A program made the translations under genes and the position numbers. From an uncultured Actinomycetota bacterium (GTDB taxonomy: Bacteria; Actinomycetota; Actinomycetes; CAVWCF01), in the NCBI GenBank assembly GCA_963753435.1, contig CAVWCF010000001.1, forward strand, positions 1,120,001 to 1,184,000: a stretch of 64,000 bases of DNA. The letters run 5' to 3'. Of this stretch, positions 2,568 to 52,682 are shown piece by piece (position 1 is the first letter of the stretch; each line of letters opens with the position of its first letter). The notes below the pieces were generated by a model. That model saw nothing but the letters and a program-made list of their open reading frames with translations. It had not been told where the DNA came from and ran no database searches.

Positions 2568-3278
2568 TCAGGCCGACTCGGCGACGTCCTCGGTACGACC
2601 GGCGGGGTCGACCTGGATGCCGGGGCCCATCGTCGTGGAAACGGTGATCTTGCGGATGTACCGGCCCTTGGCGCTGGACGGCTTCAACCGCAGTACCTCG
2701 TCCAGCACGGCCTGGTAGTTCTCCGCGAGCTGTTCCTCGCTGAAGGAGACCTTGCCGATGATGGTGTGCAGGTTCGCGTTGCGATCGACGCGGAACTCGA
2801 TCTTGCCGCCCTTGATGTCGGCGACAGCCTTGGCCACGTCCATGGTCACGGTGCCGACCTTGGGGTTCGGCATCAGACCGCGCGGACCCAGCACCCGGCC
2901 GAGGCGACCGACCTTGCCCATGTGGTCGGGGGTGGCGACGACCGCGTCGAAGTCCAGGCGACCACCTTCGACCTCGGCGATCAACTCGTCCGAGCCGACG
3001 ATGTCGGCGCCGGCGTTGCGGGCCTCCTCGGCCTTCTCGCCGCCGGCGAACACCAGGACGCGGGCGGTCTTGCCCGTGCCGTTGGGCAGGTTCACCGTGC
3101 CGCGGACCATCTGGTCGGCCTTGCGCGGGTCTACACCCAGCCGCATCGAGACCTCGACGGTCGAGTCGAACTTGGTCGCAGACGTGCTCTTGGCCAGGCT
3201 CAGTGCCTCCGACGGGCCGTACAGCTTGTCCCGGTCGAGACCCTCAGCGGCCTTGCGGTAACTCTTCGCGCGCTTCAT
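2568..3278 (-). CDS. rplA: 50S ribosomal protein L1
   Basis: MKRAKSYR...[25 protein letters not shown]...[16 protein letters not shown]. Confidence 0.99.
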
Positions 3279-3305
3279 CTGTTCGTCCTTTCTTCGTGAA
3301 CAGTC

Positions 3306-3335
3306 GTGGTGTGTGGGCCGCGCGGGCCCTCCCAC
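3306..3335 (-). promoter_or_regulatory. Probable L1-binding mRNA site between rplK and rplA
   Basis: GTGGGAGGGCC-CGCGC-GGCCC-ACAC-ACCAC stem with asymmetric internal loop, at the position typical of actinobacterial L1 sites. Confidence 0.6.
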
Positions 3336-3414
3336 TGCCCCCGGCACCTGGTGTGCCGGGAAGTCGATTCGGTTGTTACGCGGGCGATCGCCAAGTGGCG
3401 ACGCAGCGGTTGGT

Positions 3415-3846
3415 TCAGCCGGTGACGTTGATGCCCATGGAGCGTGCGGTCCCGGCGATGATCTGCTCGGCCGCGTCCAGGTCGTTGGCGTTGAGGTCGG
3501 CCATCTTGGTTTCGGCGATCTCACGCACCTGCGCCCGAGTGACCGAACCGACCTTCTCCTTGTGCGGCACGCCGCTGCCCTTCTGCAGCCCGGCCGCCTT
3601 CAGCAGCAACTGCGCCGCCGGCGGGGTCTTGGTGATGAAGTCGAACGAACGGTCCTCGTAGACCGTGATCTCGACCGGAATCACCTGGCCACGCTGGGAC
3701 TCAGTCGCAGCGTTGTAGGCCTTGCAGAACTCCATGATGTTGACGCCGTGCTGACCCAGGGCAGGTCCGACCGGCGGCGCGGGGTTCGCCTGGCCAGCCT
3801 GAATCTGCAGCTTGATCAGCCCGGAGACCTTCTTCTTGGGGGGCAT
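3415..3846 (-). CDS. rplK: 50S ribosomal protein L11
   Basis: MPPKKK...[27 protein letters not shown]. Confidence 0.99.
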
Positions 3847-3879
3847 GCTGTCCTTCTTGCAGTCGGTTGACGCGGTGCG

Positions 3880-4806
3880 TCAGTTCTTCTGAATGTTGCT
3901 GAATTCCAACTCGACCGGGGTCTCCCGGCCGAAGATCTCAACGAAGGCCTTGACCCGCTTGCTGTCGGGGTGGACCTCGTCAATGGTGGCCAGAAGACCG
4001 GCGAAAGCGTGCTCGCCGATGATCGTGACCGAGTCGCCCGCCGAGAAGTCCAGAACGCGGACCTCCGTCGGCGCTGCGCCACCACCGGAACCGGCCTTCT
4101 TCTCCGGCTTGGGAGCCAGGATGGCCACCACCTCGTCGATGGTCAGCGGCGTGGGCGCGTGCCCGTGCCCGACGAAGCCGGTGACACCGGGGGTGTTGCG
4201 AACCGTTCCCCATGAGGTGTCGTTCAGGTCCATGCGAACCAGCACGTACCCGGGGAACTTGTTGCGCTTGACGTTCTTGCGCTGGTTGTTCTTGATCTCG
4301 ACGACCTCTTCGGTCGGGACCTCAACCTGGAAGATGTAGTCCTCCATGTTCATCGAGGACGTCCGCGACTCGATGTTCGTCTTCACCCGGTTCTCGTACC
4401 CGGCGTACGAGTGCACCACGTACCAATCGCCGAGTGCGGTACGCAGCGACTCCCGCAGCTGGGTGACCGGGTCGTCCTCGTCTTCCTCCGCGCTCTCGTC
4501 TTCGGCGCTCTCGTCGACAGCCACGGCCGGCTCGTCGCCCGCCTCCTCGCCGGCGTCCGCCGCGCTGGCGTCCGCCTCGGCGGAGTCCCCCGTGAGGTCG
4601 ATCAGCTCCGAATCGCCGGCCGCATCGGCACCGGCGGCGTCCGCAACTACGTCGCCGGACTCCGCGGGTTGACTGTCATCGGCAACGTCGGTGGGCGGCG
4701 TGGCGTCAGCACCGGAGCCGGGAACCGCGAACGGGTCCCGGGACGGGGCGTTGGACGGAGCATCCGTCGGCGCATCGGCGGCGGACTGCTGGGGAACCTC
4801 GGACAC
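3880..4806 (-). CDS. nusG: Transcription factor NusG with long acidic N-terminal extension
   Basis: WYVVHSYAGYENRVK...FPGYVLV...VEIFGRETPVELEF; GTG at 4806 after AGGAAGG. Confidence 0.96.
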   Translation of the reverse strand: MSEVPQQSAADAPTDAPSNAPSRDPFAVPGSGADATPPTDVADDSQPAESGDVVADAAGADAAGDSELIDLTGDSAEADASAADAGEEAGDEPAVAVDESAEDESAEEDEDDPVTQLRESLRTALGDWYVVHSYAGYENRVKTNIESRTSSMNMEDYIFQVEVPTEEVVEIKNNQRKNVKRNKFPGYVLVRMDLNDTSWGTVRNTPGVTGFVGHGHAPTPLTIDEVVAILAPKPEKKAGSGGGAAPTEVRVLDFSAGDSVTIIGEHAFAGLLATIDEVHPDSKRVKAFVEIFGRETPVELEFSNIQKN

Positions 4807-45242: not shown

Positions 45243-46142
45243 GTGAACCCCCGGGACGCCAGCCTCTTGGTGCTCCTGGCCGCGATCTTCGGTTCCTCGT
45301 TCCTGTTCATGCGGATCGCCGCGCCCGACGTCGGCCCGTTCATGGTGGCCGGTGTTCGCGTCGGCATCGCCGCTGTCGTACTGCTGGCCGTATTGGTGCT
45401 GCGGCGTGAGGTCGGCCGGCTCAAGGAGCACGCGCGTCCGCTGGCGATTGTCGGGCTGGTGTTCGTCGCCATCCCCTTCACGCTGATCTCCGCCGCCGAA
45501 CTGCACCTGACCGCTTCCCTGGCTTCGGTGCTGAACGCATTGGTCCCCGCCTGGGGAATCGTGGTCGCGGCGATCGCCTACTCCCAGCCGATAACCGCCA
45601 AACGGCTGCTGGGGGCGGCCAGCGGTCTGGTCGGCGTGGCGCTGGCCGTCGGGTTGGGCACCCTGGGGTGGTCCTGGGCGTCCGCGCTCGCGGTCGGGGC
45701 GATGCTGCTGGCGACACTCGGCTACGCGGTCGGCAGCGTCGCGGCGGCGCGACTGCTGTCCGGGGTGCCGCCGCAGGTGACGACGACCGGGTTGATGATC
45801 TCCGCGACCGCTTGGCTGGCGGTGCCGATGGCGCTCACCTGGCCGGACAGCCGACCGGAGACGGACACGATCTGGTCGCTCATCACCCTGGGCGTGCTGT
45901 GCACCGGGTTCGCGTTCGGGATCTTCTTCGTGCTGCTGGCGCGGATCGGGCCGGTGGGTTCGACGTCGGTGACGTTCCTGGCGCCGATCTTCGGGATCCT
46001 GTTCGGGGTTTTGTTCCTGTCGGAGCGGCTGAGCGCGGGCCTGTTCCTGGGCTTGCTGTTCGTGTTGACCGGCGTGGCACTGATCACGGACACCCGGTTG
46101 TCCACACTGCGCCCGACGGCCCGGCCGGGCGTTCCCGGCTAG
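45243..46142 (+). CDS. DMT/EamA family transporter
   Basis: LAAIFGSSFLFMRIA, LASVLNA, LGVLCTGFA, VTFLAPIFG; about 10 hydrophobic segments. Confidence 0.9.
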   Translation: MNPRDASLLVLLAAIFGSSFLFMRIAAPDVGPFMVAGVRVGIAAVVLLAVLVLRREVGRLKEHARPLAIVGLVFVAIPFTLISAAELHLTASLASVLNALVPAWGIVVAAIAYSQPITAKRLLGAASGLVGVALAVGLGTLGWSWASALAVGAMLLATLGYAVGSVAAARLLSGVPPQVTTTGLMISATAWLAVPMALTWPDSRPETDTIWSLITLGVLCTGFAFGIFFVLLARIGPVGSTSVTFLAPIFGILFGVLFLSERLSAGLFLGLLFVLTGVALITDTRLSTLRPTARPGVPG

Positions 46143-46254
46143 CGGGAGCGGGTCACCGGCGGCAGGACCGCTTCGATCACCCGCAGGCTCGCAACGTTCG
46201 GCAAGCCGAGCCGCGTGAGAGTGCCTCGCAGCGCCTCCGACTGCAACGTTGCGG

Positions 46255-46322
46255 CGGAAACGCAACATTCGGACCGGATCGCATCCCCTCCGGATGCGAT
46301 TGGGCTACACGGTTGCGTTCCG
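46255..46322. repeat. Bipartite palindrome downstream of the AbiEi-like gene
   Basis: CGCAAC-N14-GCATCC-N5-GGATGC-N14-GTTGCG. Confidence 0.8.
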
Positions 46323-46355
46323 ACCCTGGGGATTCACCAAGAAGCGGCCGGACAC

Positions 46356-47330
46356 TCACGCCGCCCGCCGCATCGCCGACCGGATCCGAGCGGCCACCGG
46401 CGCGAAGTCGCGATAGGCCTCATCCCAACCCCACCGGATCACGGTGAACCCCATGGCGCGCAAGTCGTCCTCACGCCGCTTCTCGGCATAAAGCACATCC
46501 GGGTCGTCGTACTTGCTGCGCCCATCGAACTCGCCGATGACGCCGCCGTCCCAAAGGAAGTCGACGCGGTACCGGCCTCGCGGCCCCTTGACCTCCACCT
46601 GCAGTTGCGGCGGTGGCAACCCCGAAGCCGCGATGGCCACCCGGCTCACGCTCTCCCCAGCGCTCTCGGCGAGCGGGCTGGCGAACGCGAAGGTTCGCCG
46701 GATCGCAGCGGCACCCTTGCCAAGCGGCTGGTCGCCCAACGAACTCCGCATAACTCGCTCGTGCAGTTGGTCCTGGCTGACGAGGCCGGCAGCGAGCAAC
46801 CCGTCAACGGTGACCACAGCCGCTCGAAGGTCACCCAGCCGGCTGACGTCGAGCGCTGTTCGCAGCGGGCTGGTCATGCGCACCGGACCATCGCTGACTT
46901 CGTCGTCGGCGAGATCGGCGCGGTGGAGGACTCGATACGGCTGACTGCGCACCCACGTGGGTCTCGTGACGTGTACTGGGCCGCCGTGGTGCAGCACCGG
47001 GACGCCGAGCAGTTCCGCGGCGCTGAAGTGGCTGGCCACCGTCGGGGCTCCGGTCACCAGCGTGACGGCGGCGATCCTGGCTCGGTGCCGCTCACCTAGG
47101 CCCCAGGCCACCCATTGGTCCGTCCCCACGTAGCCGCCGCGAACAATTGACGTCCAGTCGCCCCGGTCGACGTGCGACCTGACCTCCTTGGCGGTGAAGC
47201 CCACTGACATGGCCTGGCCGGCCGTAAACGCACCGAACTGCTGGGCGGCGATACCTGCGAGTAAGGGATCCACGCGCGCAGGCTGCCGCTGACGTGGGCT
47301 GAACGTTTCGGCCATCCACAGTCGCCGCAC
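46356..47330 (-). CDS. AbiEi-like N-terminal domain plus DUF559/Vsr-like PD-(D/E)XK domain protein
   Basis: QFGAFT...RGGY, SHFSAAELLG, TSPLRTALD, ESAGESVSR, GLPPPQLQ, RVDFLW, GEFDG..KY, EKRREDDLR, RWGW; start uncertain. Confidence 0.8.
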   Translation of the reverse strand: MRRLWMAETFSPRQRQPARVDPLLAGIAAQQFGAFTAGQAMSVGFTAKEVRSHVDRGDWTSIVRGGYVGTDQWVAWGLGERHRARIAAVTLVTGAPTVASHFSAAELLGVPVLHHGGPVHVTRPTWVRSQPYRVLHRADLADDEVSDGPVRMTSPLRTALDVSRLGDLRAAVVTVDGLLAAGLVSQDQLHERVMRSSLGDQPLGKGAAAIRRTFAFASPLAESAGESVSRVAIAASGLPPPQLQVEVKGPRGRYRVDFLWDGGVIGEFDGRSKYDDPDVLYAEKRREDDLRAMGFTVIRWGWDEAYRDFAPVAARIRSAMRRAA

Positions 47331-47342
47331 GACTCATGGGCC

Positions 47343-47402
47343 AAACGCAACATGCGCTCCGAGAAGCATCCGGGCCGGATGCGATCTGGGGCCGCCGTTG
47401 CG
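47343..47402. repeat. Bipartite palindrome upstream of the AbiEi-like gene
   Basis: Same CGCAAC-N14-GCATCC-N5-GGATGC-N14-GTTGCG layout, followed by two GGTCAGCGGKGAGGTTGCGA direct repeats (47403-47422, 47451-47470). Confidence 0.8.
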
Positions 47403-47488
47403 GGTCAGCGGTGAGGTTGCGAATCGGGGGCCGCGGGTCAGCGGGTGCCGGGTCAGCGGGGAGGTTGCGAGACGGGAGGCGTGCCCGG

Positions 47489-49132
47489 CTAGCGGGCGCG
47501 GGTGACTGGCGGCAGGACCGCTTCGATCACGCGCAATCCGTTGCCCACCGAGTCCGACAGGGCCTTGGCCAGCGACTCCGCGTCAGTCACCGCCGTGTGC
47601 GCCCACCCGGTTGCCGCGCACAGCCCGCCGATGTCGACGCCGTGCGGGGTGCCGAACAGCCGGTCGAACGCCGCCGCGTGCTGCGGTGCGCCCTGCTCCA
47701 GCAGCTTGAACAGCCCGCCGCCGGCGTTGTTGGACACAACCACGACCAGGTCGGGCCTCGGCTCGTCGGGGCCGATCGCCAGGCCGGCGGCGTCGTGCAG
47801 GAACGCCACGTCGCCGACGTAGGCGGCTGCCGGTCCCCCGCCGCGGGCCTGCCAGGACAGGGCCGCGCCGACGGCCGTGGACGTGGTGCCGTCGATCCCG
47901 GCCGCGCCCCGGTTGGCGACGACCGTGACGCCGTCACGCAACTGCGCCCAGGCCAGGTCCCGCACCGGCAGTGACGAGGCCGCCACGAGCAGCGAGCCAG
48001 CCGGCAGTGCAGCCATCACTTCGGTGGCAACGATGCGTCCGTCCCACTCGTCCAGCGAATACCGCTCGGCGCGGGCGGCGTCCGCCTCCCGCCAGGCGTT
48101 CAGCCAGGCGTCGTCGTGCGGGTGGTGGTCGCCGGGGTGCGGCACCGCGGCGTGCACACGCGACGCCAGCCGGGGCGCGTCCGGCCACCAGGGGCTCGGG
48201 GAGGCGATCTCCACGGACACACCGGGTTCGCGCATCAACCGCTGCACCGACCGCCACAGCGTCGGACGGCCCACCACGATGATCCGGTCCGGGCGGTTGG
48301 CCGACAGCCAGCGGTGGTCGTCGATGAGCAGTTGTCCCAGGCGCAGTGCGTTCGGTCCGGTGCGCGCGTTGCCGCACGGTTCGGCGATCACCGGCCAGCC
48401 GCGGCCTTCGGCGAGCAGCACGGCCGCCTGACCCCACGCGGGCGGGCAGTCGCCGACGACGACCAGGGTGCGTTCGGGCCGCGGGTCGACCGCCGGGGGT
48501 TCGGCGATCGGCGCGGAGTCCACGACCGTCCAGCGGGCGCCGCCGTCGCGGCCGTCCAAGGATTCGATCCAGTCGCCGGAGTCCGGCACCAACGGCTCGC
48601 GGAACGGCAGGTTCAGGTGCACCGGCCCGGGGTCCAGGGTGCGAGTGCCGCGCGCGGCCGCCAGGGTCCGGCAGACCAGCGAGCGCCAGTACGCGACCGA
48701 CCCGACGCGCTCCTCCGGCACACCGACCTCGTGGAAGAACCGCACCTCCGAGCCGAACAGCTGCAACTGGTCCACGGTCTGGTTGGCGCCGGCGCTGCGC
48801 AGTTCCGGGGGCCGGTCGGCGGTCATGGCGATGATCGGCACCTCGGCGTAGGAGGCCTCGGTGATGGCCGGGTGCAGGTTGGCCGCAGCGGTGCCGGAGG
48901 TGGTGACGACGGGGACCGGGGTGTCGGACAACTTCGCCAGACCCAGGGCGGTGAAGGCGGCGGCGCGTTCATCCAGGCGCACGTGCAGACGCAGCCGTCC
49001 GGCCTTGTCGGCGTCGTGCAGGGCGTAGGCGATTGGGGCCGAGCGCGACCCCGGCGCGATGACGGCCTCGCGGACCCCGCCGCGGATGAGTTCGTCGACG
49101 AGGACGCGGGCCATGGCGGTGGCTCCGTTCAC
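47489..49132 (-). CDS. menD: SEPHCHC synthase
   Basis: PGSRSAP, DERAAAF, TSGTAAANL, TADRPPEL, NRGAAGIDG, GDVAFLHD. Confidence 0.96.
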   Translation of the reverse strand: MNGATAMARVLVDELIRGGVREAVIAPGSRSAPIAYALHDADKAGRLRLHVRLDERAAAFTALGLAKLSDTPVPVVTTSGTAAANLHPAITEASYAEVPIIAMTADRPPELRSAGANQTVDQLQLFGSEVRFFHEVGVPEERVGSVAYWRSLVCRTLAAARGTRTLDPGPVHLNLPFREPLVPDSGDWIESLDGRDGGARWTVVDSAPIAEPPAVDPRPERTLVVVGDCPPAWGQAAVLLAEGRGWPVIAEPCGNARTGPNALRLGQLLIDDHRWLSANRPDRIIVVGRPTLWRSVQRLMREPGVSVEIASPSPWWPDAPRLASRVHAAVPHPGDHHPHDDAWLNAWREADAARAERYSLDEWDGRIVATEVMAALPAGSLLVAASSLPVRDLAWAQLRDGVTVVANRGAAGIDGTTSTAVGAALSWQARGGGPAAAYVGDVAFLHDAAGLAIGPDEPRPDLVVVVSNNAGGGLFKLLEQGAPQHAAAFDRLFGTPHGVDIGGLCAATGWAHTAVTDAESLAKALSDSVGNGLRVIEAVLPPVTRAR

Positions 49133-51587: not shown

Positions 51588-51866
51588 ATGGCCAAGACCG
51601 CCCGCCTTGAGGTGCGCCTGACCTCGGAGCTGAAGGCGCAGATCGAATCCCTGGCAGCCGAGCAGGGCGCGACGGCGAGCGACTTCGTTCGATCCGTCAT
51701 CGAGGAGCGGCTGGAGGAGTTGCTACAGCGCTCGCAGCGATACACGTTCGTCTCGCCGGAGTACTTCGACTGGCTGATGCGCTGGCTGGACGAGCCACCG
51801 GAACCCCTGCCGCCGACCATGCGCCGCGCGATGGAACGCTGGCGGCAGAACAACCCCGCCGACTGA
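51588..51866 (+). CDS. DUF1778-like RHH antitoxin (TacA/AtaR type)
   Basis: KTARLEVRLT..LK..IE..A...G...SDFV; LDEPPEP; directly upstream of a GNAT gene. Confidence 0.8.
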   Translation: MAKTARLEVRLTSELKAQIESLAAEQGATASDFVRSVIEERLEELLQRSQRYTFVSPEYFDWLMRWLDEPPEPLPPTMRRAMERWRQNNPAD

Positions 51867-51869
51867 CGG

Positions 51870-52349
51870 GTGGCGACGACCAGTCCGCTGCGTCCCGATT
51901 GCGTGCTGCGGGGCTTCGATTGCGGCGTACCCGACCTGAACACTTGGCTGGTTGCGCATGCCGAAAGATCCGAGCGCGCCCGACAGAGCCGGACGTTCGT
52001 CGCTGAGTCCGGCGGCAGAGTCGTGGGCTACTACGCCCTTGCCGCCCATGCAGTCGCTGCCAGCGACCTCCCTGCTCGGTGGCAGCGAGGGGCGCCGCGA
52101 AGCGTCCCCGCCGTGCTGTTGGCGAAGCTGGCGGTAGACCTCTCAGCGCAGGGCCATGGTCTTGGCGCGGACTTGGTCGTCGATGCGTTTCAGCGAGTCC
52201 TGTCGGCCGCCGAACAGGTCGGTACTCGCGTGCTGGTCGTGGACGCCATCGACGACTCCGCGAAGAACTTCTACTTGCGGCTCGGCTTCGTCCGCACCTC
52301 ATCTTCGCAGCGCCTTATGCAGAAGCTGAGTTGGGCGGCTCAGCGCTAG
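51870..52349 (+). CDS. GNAT-family toxin (TacT/AtaT type)
   Basis: FDCGVPDLNTWL, VVGYYAL, PAVLLAKLAVD, QGHGLG, VVDAID..AKNFY..GF. Confidence 0.85.
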   Translation: MATTSPLRPDCVLRGFDCGVPDLNTWLVAHAERSERARQSRTFVAESGGRVVGYYALAAHAVAASDLPARWQRGAPRSVPAVLLAKLAVDLSAQGHGLGADLVVDAFQRVLSAAEQVGTRVLVVDAIDDSAKNFYLRLGFVRTSSSQRLMQKLSWAAQR

Positions 52350-52361
52350 GCGACTAGAACA

Positions 52362-52682
52362 TCACCAGACCAGGCCGAGGGCGGCATGCAGGCCCTGCTC
52401 AACGCGGCGCATTGTGTCTCGCGAAACGGCGCCGGCCTCGCCGGTCACCTCGTGTCGGTAGACCACGCCGATCTCGTCACACAAGACCCGGCCCACTAGC
52501 GGGTCGAGTGGACCCAACTCGACGACAGAAGCGAGCGCGGGCTTTCGGCTCGTTGTGATCCGGACCGCGAGGAACGAGTCGAGAGCTCGATTGCGCTGAT
52601 TGCCCGATACGACCAGGAAGGGCTTGATCTCACCGACCTCGGCGATTCGGGCGAAGTAGCACCGCCCCCGAGTGGGGATCAC
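52362..52682 (-). CDS. PemK/MazF-family toxin
   Basis: RG..Y, KPFLVVSGNQRNRAL, VRITTS, MRRVEQGLHAALG. Confidence 0.82.
   Translation of the reverse strand: MIPTRGRCYFARIAEVGEIKPFLVVSGNQRNRALDSFLAVRITTSRKPALASVVELGPLDPLVGRVLCDEIGVVYRHEVTGEAGAVSRDTMRRVEQGLHAALGLVW

Follow-up and report, generated by a model that had tools for sequence, protein, structure and literature searches.

Introduction

Some integrative elements replace the 3' end of a host gene. They are one of several points of comparison for the locus studied here, which lies in a 64,000-nucleotide stretch of DNA from an uncultured Actinomycetota bacterium (lineage CAVWCF01; GenBank assembly GCA_963753435.1, contig CAVWCF010000001.1, positions 1,120,001 to 1,184,000; the whole stretch is referred to as the window) and comprises a single gene for an AbiEi-like, nuclease-fold protein set between two palindromic arrays at the junction of an EamA transporter gene and menD. 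REP/REPIN-RAYT systems, as described in bioRxiv 10.1101/2021.07.10.451892, pair a cognate enzyme gene with extragenic palindromes some 60-100 bp long; they are chromosomal, all but missing from plasmids and phages, largely vertically inherited, and have solo copies elsewhere. EDxHD enzymes use a catalytic motif with a His general base (PMC3239194). PMC3985639 describes AbiEi as binding inverted repeats up to 23 bp long and as encoded bicistronically with its toxin.

Together with its two arrays, the gene makes up one cassette belonging to a family widespread in Actinomycetia, and the arrays, which the original prediction for this locus had overlooked, are the feature that defines the family. 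Like REPIN-RAYT, the cassette has cognate palindromes beside its gene and solo copies elsewhere, is chromosomal (no match in 50,697 phages and 4 matches among 72,556 plasmid records), is mostly vertical at the one site tested, and rarely colonises new sites. Unlike REPIN-RAYT, its enzyme joins an AbiEi-like module to a Vsr-like PD-(D/E)xK domain and is not of the HUH/tyrosine type; a single genome often carries multiple paralogues, every one with an array type of its own; solo copies reach tens at most rather than hundreds, and the arrays have a period of 19-21 bp; and the gene is bracketed, inverts and collapses. The cassette protein has in common with the EDxHD homing endonuclease I-Bth0305I, Vsr and DUF559 proteins its C-terminal fold and a bipartite layout of DNA-binding and catalytic parts (PMC3239194 and PMC3424549), but it reads GEFDGxxKY without the EDxHD His and has an AbiEi-like rather than a NUMOD N-terminus, and the cassette has no intron or intein, is flanked by its own palindromes and is not found in phages. 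Residues 14-213 resemble the type IV antitoxin AbiEi (6y8q), whereas the cassette lacks a bicistronic AbiEii toxin, has a fused nuclease domain and carries repeats on both sides of the gene. The window resembles elements that replace a gene's 3' end in its duplicated gene end with mostly synonymous differences, but the cassette has no integrase, and the duplication, seen with 58 and 139 bp at just two of the 279 loci, has no fixed length. BoxC/triplex motifs (PMC4666352) were considered and rejected; the accessible text of that source reports no mobility genes near those motifs and mentions no DUF or endonuclease. No description of the cassette was found in the full-text literature searched, which leaves most subscription journals and supplements outside its scope, and we regard the cassette as real: it varies the repeat-plus-enzyme theme in an undescribed way and here carries a rare insertion scar.

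A gene bracketed by palindromic arrays

The genome holding the window (G000) is 2.17 Mb in size and 98% complete. The features of the locus, in window coordinates unless a G000 position is given, are as follows.

45243-46142, + strand: EamA transporter gene (Pfam EamA, E 1.7e-32); its last five codons lie within the left outer repeat.
46128-46185: left outer 58-bp repeat, holding the functional EamA end and an orphan copy of the last 46 nt of menD (sequence comparison; partly present beside the cassette in a contig of sequencing run X1).
46188-46195, + strand: terminal motif CTCGCAAC, the inverse of 47464-47471, giving an 8-bp terminal inverted motif of the cassette (read from the sequence).
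46202-46237: 36-bp segment 33/36 identical to the middle of host grpE (G000 C1:1489312-1489347), likely a captured fragment (E 3e-8 to 7e-8; GrpE Pfam).
46241-46320: downstream palindromic array of GCAAC/GCATC units placed every 19 bp, with mirror symmetry around a centre near 46290 (fold, spacing, profile).
46356-47330, - strand: gene whose product joins an AbiEi-like DNA-binding module to a nuclease domain of the Vsr/I-Bth0305I kind, with RVDFLW..GEFDGRSKY..EKRRED (Pfam, alignment, predicted structure).
47315-47320, - strand: TGTGG/CCACA motif upstream of the gene, conserved in 217/279 loci versus 45 in control windows.
47343-47471: upstream palindromic array carrying additional GTTGCG units spaced 19-28 bp apart and ending in GTTGCGAG (repeat, fold, profile).
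47478-47535: right outer 58-bp repeat, holding 12 orphan nt of the EamA end and the functional menD 3' end (sequence comparison).
47489-49132, - strand: menD, intact (thiamine pyrophosphate enzyme domains by Pfam; men cluster context).
47532-47545: near-cognate mini-palindrome in menD at the repeat boundary, agreeing with the array motif at 10/12 positions and possibly a recognition site, though this reading is weak and post hoc.
G000 C1:53251, 1112997, 1195742, 1213837, 1507541 and 1661022, and C5:13918: solo arrays without long flanking duplications.

The core of the two arrays is an inner repeat pair (46258-46317 and 47343-47402) that is 72% identical, each member being palindromic. Compared with shuffled sequences, the fold z was -3.8 for the downstream array (0/200 shuffles) and -2.4 for the upstream array. 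A profile built from six array copies found nine in G000, two flanking the gene and seven solo without a nuclease gene, and the eight of these nine copies that were measured all have GCAAC/GCATC units at 19-bp spacing mirrored about a centre. The array of the cassette in another genome, G031, likewise has six solo copies elsewhere, 86-97% identical. Searches of the cassette gave no match in Rfam and no sigma-70 promoter, and a terminator scan was at chance level. The TGTGG/CCACA motif lies about 40-100 nt upstream of the gene at the loci that have it and is possibly a promoter or binding element.

The grpE-like match scores 52.7 bits, against a best of 38 bits in 300 shuffles, and 3 of 500 random real 75-mers reach 52.7. 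The only differences from host grpE are D/E and S/T exchanges and a single silent change. In the X1 contig, 12 other letters stand in place of 46202-46237 and would restore a near-regular array unit. The segment, absent from the X1 strain, is possibly foreign captured DNA, and its replacement there suggests that the cassette ends may be sites of DNA breakage and patching.

Distribution of the cassette in Actinomycetia

The family is present in 29/31 relatives and in 136/201 sampled genomes of the class at E<=1e-40, with 4-15 matches per genome in Blastococcus, the genus of G034. For comparison of loci, 376 were reduced to 279 unique loci with a score of at least 120 and flanks of at least 700 nt; the unpublished genomes G008, G030 and G102 enter the tallies, and L190 from G008 may be among the loci, though no single claim depends on them. 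At 176/279 loci the upstream and downstream repeats match each other with 35 bits or more. In an earlier set of 142 loci the own pair matched in 84, compared with 71 of 20022 cross-locus pairs (0.35%), and therefore each locus carries its own repeat. The sharing of repeats between different sites increased with protein identity, from 12/15821 comparisons below 35% to 22/182 at 55-65% and 8/27 above 65%. Array periods of 19, 20 and 21 bp occurred in 36, 57 and 21 loci, versus 2, 1 and 8 in controls.

Cassettes prefer convergent gene ends: 105 of the 181 with both flanks orientable lie in a convergent context, compared with 61/347 ordinary G000 genes, although kin among them are not independent. 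Three cassettes (L037, L047 and L040) were seen between co-directional core genes, namely a ribosomal L15-family gene and secY, tuf and rpsJ, and prs and an L25 gene. The men cluster is a recurrent site, with a cassette right after menD in G005 (L476), cognate solo arrays after menD in G019 (L007) and G001, and a similar palindrome at the menD end of G002; G001 and G002 also have weak-scoring cassettes after menF (L477 and L478) together with these palindromes after menD.

Inversion, decay and loss at single sites

The 3' end of Blastococcus PhoH (L290-L315) was compared by eye in 26 genomes. The cassette lies forward in four of them (3 full, 1 decayed) and in reverse in twelve (5 full, 4 frameshifted, 3 remnant); the others have no gene, retaining twin arrays (2), solo arrays (5) or nothing (3). 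A second site (L232/L285) likewise holds the cassette in both orientations across species, and at a panB-like site, named from its translation, the gene is nearby in only 4/26 genomes. The cassette thus inverts in place, decays, and is lost between species. Orientation at the PhoH site is mixed within well-supported host clades, and this, combined with the congruence of host and nuclease trees considered in the Discussion, indicates that the cassette is mostly inherited in place, where it flips and decays. In-place flipping also fits the enrichment of DUF559 genes among predicted programmed inversions reported in PMC9881135, whose odds ratio of 14.3 concerns a wider DUF559 set.

Judged from locus comparison, new sites appear to be colonised, but rarely. 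The 279 loci fall into 147 site clusters. Of 283 pairs that share 60% identity or more, 85 occupy different sites; among copies at different sites, one pair reaches 78.5% identity and all others stay at or below 69%. In 3/6 same-site groups the synonymous divergence (dS) of the nuclease gene exceeds that of both flanks, for example 0.70 versus 0.17 and 0.25.

The encoded protein

The AbiEi-like and Vsr-like domains span the whole chain in Pfam and fold searches. Pfam matches to the window protein are weak and below the Pfam cut-off (DUF559, E 0.0014; AbiEi_4, E 0.004), and AbiEi_4 matches are found in 33/46 aligned homologues. Among 7999 scored candidates, 323 homologues reached E<=1e-10, and they point to a start near 47315 or 47273. 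The predicted structure has a confidence (pLDDT) of 94. In this model, residues 14-213 match AbiEi 6y8q (Z 10.5, root-mean-square deviation 5.1 A over 177 residues; Foldseek E 1e-4), a fold match by which a winged helix-turn-helix and the AbiEi C-terminal domain are present, and residues ~216-319 match I-Bth0305I (3r3p; Z 11.4, deviation 2.5 A over 94 residues), NGO0050 (3hrl; Z 11.7) and Vsr (1cw0; Z 9.4). The sole enclosed gene had been predicted to be AbiEi-like or DUF559-like, which the fold matches and the sub-threshold Pfam hits bear out.

Thirteen residues are invariant in the 46-sequence alignment: T148, D156, E221, D252, G261, E262, D264, G265, K268, Y269, E278, R281 and R294. The catalytic acidic residues of the EDxHD/Vsr fold appear conserved. 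There is no invariant His, and the invariant K268 and Y269 follow E262-x-D264-G265, an equivalence to EDxHD judged from sequence motif and not from residue-level superposition. With a dN/dS of 0.16-0.39, the gene is, by codon comparison, under purifying selection.

The cassette is a single open reading frame in which Pfam and fold searches found no DDE transposase, no Tyr or Ser recombinase and no HUH/tyrosine (IS200-like) transposase domain. No paralogue of the protein was found in G000. An AbiEii toxin was found neither in G000 nor among 65 neighbours of 33 homologue loci; these were 65 of 89 prepared neighbour proteins, of which 59 belong by Pfam to housekeeping or transport families and 6 to no family. 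The suggestion that the gene is no simple antitoxin is upheld by the missing AbiEii and by the nuclease-fold domain fused to the protein.

Duplication of the EamA/menD gene ends

Outside the arrays, 46128-46185 and 47478-47535 form direct repeats of 58 nt, offset by 1350 bp and 53/58 identical (blastn E 5e-16 against the whole genome). Direct comparison and blastn confirmed the repeats as first described, with their five mismatches. Each copy encodes GVPG-stop on the + strand and RVIEAVLPPVTR[S/A]R-stop on the - strand, and the two stops overlap at CTAG in both (46139-46142 and 47489-47492), as had been noted. The EamA side contributes only 12-15 nt of the repeat. The mismatches are GTT/GTG in the EamA frame and TCC/GCC (Ser/Ala), GTG/GTC, CCG/CCA and CGG/CGC in the menD frame, so that four of the five are synonymous, again as predicted, and the fifth is Ser/Ala. 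Drift confined to the orphan parts gives this synonymous excess P=0.037; once silent drift in the functional copies is allowed as well, P is 0.16 and the bias is not significant. At C1:456933 the orphan copy has a 24/26 match in another coding frame, which was taken as chance.

Independent assemblies were compared with the locus. In run X1, one contig of 931 nt links 46148-46196 with the cassette and has 21 other letters across 46243-47111, and the left junction is therefore independently supported; pieces of the nuclease gene also occur in runs X2 and X4, from other studies. No bridging of the right junction was found among the listed contigs of the runs examined. An assembly artefact, raised initially as a possible source of the duplication, is unlikely. 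Ten of the 21 X1 differences, which lie in the gene region, were classified, five as silent and five not, two of these in one codon, numbers too small for use.

Among the 279 loci, the only other long gene-end duplication is at L028 (Micropruina sp. SSC1, ~2600-4370), which is built like the window locus and where 139 bp, 90% identical, span the ends of convergent MeaB and radical-SAM genes, with a short terminal inverted repeat just inside. This duplication takes in 30 nt of the other gene's end, and its orphan copy is decaying (2/8 differences synonymous). A candidate at L430 (35.6 bits, 77%) was rejected as chance, and the remaining candidates in the scan were array units. No further gene-end duplication was found in 120 additional loci, nor at the Blastococcus PhoH, second or panB-like sites, and no long duplication surrounds the seven solo arrays in G000 or six in G031. 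The original proposal to test homologues for flanking direct repeats thus had a divided outcome: 176/279 have their own matched array pair, but gene-end duplication is confined to two loci and G000 holds no paralogue.

At both the window locus and L028 a near-match to the locus's own array motif lies just past the long-side boundary, a post hoc observation worth a few per cent per boundary; at L028 it is the single 9/10 match within 1250 nt and sits 8 nt beyond the boundary. Such near-cognate motifs occur at 0.056 per kb with a hand-picked pattern, which makes the boundary match striking, and at 1.05 per kb with a fairer one, in which case the match is only suggestive.

The window species has no congeneric genome, and its two family relatives differ in gene order. 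In the relatives checked, menD adjoins menG or menF, with no EamA match there. The idea that EamA and menD were originally tail-to-tail is not established by these comparisons, in which the empty junction was not seen. An old cassette with a later arrival of EamA is possible.

Discussion

Our preferred reading, to which we give a probability of roughly 0.55 as a whole, is that an AbiEi-like module, a Vsr-like domain and host repair together account for DNA binding, nicking, and repair-driven changes of the arrays with rare insertions. Binding to the 19-20 bp repeat units would fall to the AbiEi-like module and nicking of DNA to the Vsr-like domain; host repair of the nicks would homogenise the two arrays. 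The palindromes could serve as inverted repeats, leading to inversion of the cassette, and also as direct repeats, leading to collapse into a solo array. Insertion at a new convergent junction would be rare and accompanied by a long duplication of variable length, such as the 58 bp here and the 139 bp at L028, the orphan half of which would then erode. From its sequence, the outer 58-bp repeat is likely a target duplication from entry of the cassette into the EamA/menD junction. The cassette is probably selfish. Its description as an uncharacterised mobile or selfish element is partly sustained by a family that is patchy, inverts in place and occupies many sites, while mobility is inferred. 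A wider formulation, held tentatively and at somewhat short of even odds, is that these cassettes may form a new selfish-element class, found in roughly two in three Actinomycetia genomes under the label of type IV antitoxins, in which an AbiEi-derived DNA-binding module would recognise its own palindromic arrays of 19-20 bp, a Vsr-like nickase aided by host repair would invert, collapse and seed them, and the whole gene would occasionally insert at convergent ends with long duplications and captured host fragments but no transposase or recombinase; the window would then be a rare snapshot of colonisation.

Several points weigh against this mechanism. Host recombination alone could explain inversion or collapse of palindromes. 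The nuclease and mobility activities of the protein are predicted, and since the His general base of EDxHD/Vsr is replaced by K-Y, catalysis may be altered or absent. The nuclease and host trees agree for the most part at the PhoH site, and as different-site copies are at most 78.5% identical, no recent jump has been caught. Long gene-end duplication is limited to 2/279 loci, and because none was found at solo arrays or Blastococcus sites, it may not be a product of the element. No empty allele was found for L028: loci of 19 relatives, drawn from a search of 40, were inspected, and none had the same junction. At the window locus, no joint skipping the insert was found in contigs of runs X1-X4, which are short and of low depth, so that this proves nothing.

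The strongest competitor, which we nonetheless consider unlikely, is a homing-like event in which the cassette came from another strain with the donor's menD end. A cut about 46 nt from the menD stop would have been repaired one-sidedly, and the 58-bp copies would be two functional alleles, recipient on the left and donor on the right, as in integrative elements that replace a gene's 3' end. The four synonymous mismatches with a conservative fifth (P=0.037 if only orphans drift) are what two functional alleles would give, but the fuller null yields P=0.16, the orphan at L028 is decaying, and one-sided repair does not account for the 30 nt of the other gene's end there. The 10/12 near-cognate match at the menD-side boundary and the 9/10 match 8 nt past the boundary at L028 speak for homing; the test is post hoc, with 1.05 matches per kb. 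The raised nuclease dS in 3/6 same-site groups, the conservative or silent differences of the grpE-like piece, like those of a foreign allele, and the catalytic fold common with I-Bth0305I all favour homing, against which stand 277/279 loci without an att-like copy and the largely congruent trees. The original prediction had the module carrying a diverged copy of its target, a claim that could not be established given the P=0.16, the decay at L028 and the two loci in 279. A carried menD allele is possible, but the rarity of the duplication together with this P value makes a target-duplication scar more likely than a carried attachment site.

Less probable again is a domesticated regulator or nuclease whose arrays are AbiEi-type operators or terminators spread and recombined by host enzymes, the 58-bp duplication having arisen by unrelated illegitimate recombination, for example when EamA was gained beside a cassette already at menD. 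AbiEi does bind inverted repeats in its own promoter (PMC3985639), and the purifying selection and vertical inheritance of the gene fit this reading, but an operator role leaves unexplained the matching downstream array and the array types linked to the protein. As to the site, the menD 3' end has a cassette in G005, cognate solo arrays in G001 and G019 and a similar palindrome in G002, so that it may be an old one; no EamA gene adjoining menD was found among the relatives compared, and the genome encodes Ku (G000:C5:177720-178253), so end-joining repair is likely available. The invariant nuclease-site residues, the frequent decay and loss, and the 4-15 paralogues per Blastococcus genome find no explanation in domestication. 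An orphan type IV antitoxin or an assembly artefact is largely refuted and very improbable, for although AbiEi_4 matches in 33/46 homologues and database names favour the one, and the right junction unbridged by independent contigs the other, there is no AbiEii in G000 or among the 65 neighbours, the copies differ at five sites, and an independent diverged strain has the left copy beside the cassette.

If the nicking and repair mechanism is correct, a very common actinobacterial gene family (136/201 sampled genomes) would be re-annotated, many unexplained palindromic repeats in these genomes would gain a cognate enzyme, and the REP/RAYT pattern would extend to an unrelated nuclease chemistry. 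The window would offer a concrete substrate, with cassette, arrays and a reconstructable empty junction, in which nicks some 58 bp from each other, or a single cut within menD, are predicted, and the natural protein/array pairs would be a ready series for studying the evolution of DNA specificity.

The window also holds small genes at 51588-52682. By their motifs these resemble toxin-antitoxin pairs, presumably a DUF1778-like gene with a GNAT acetyltransferase, and a PemK-like open reading frame.

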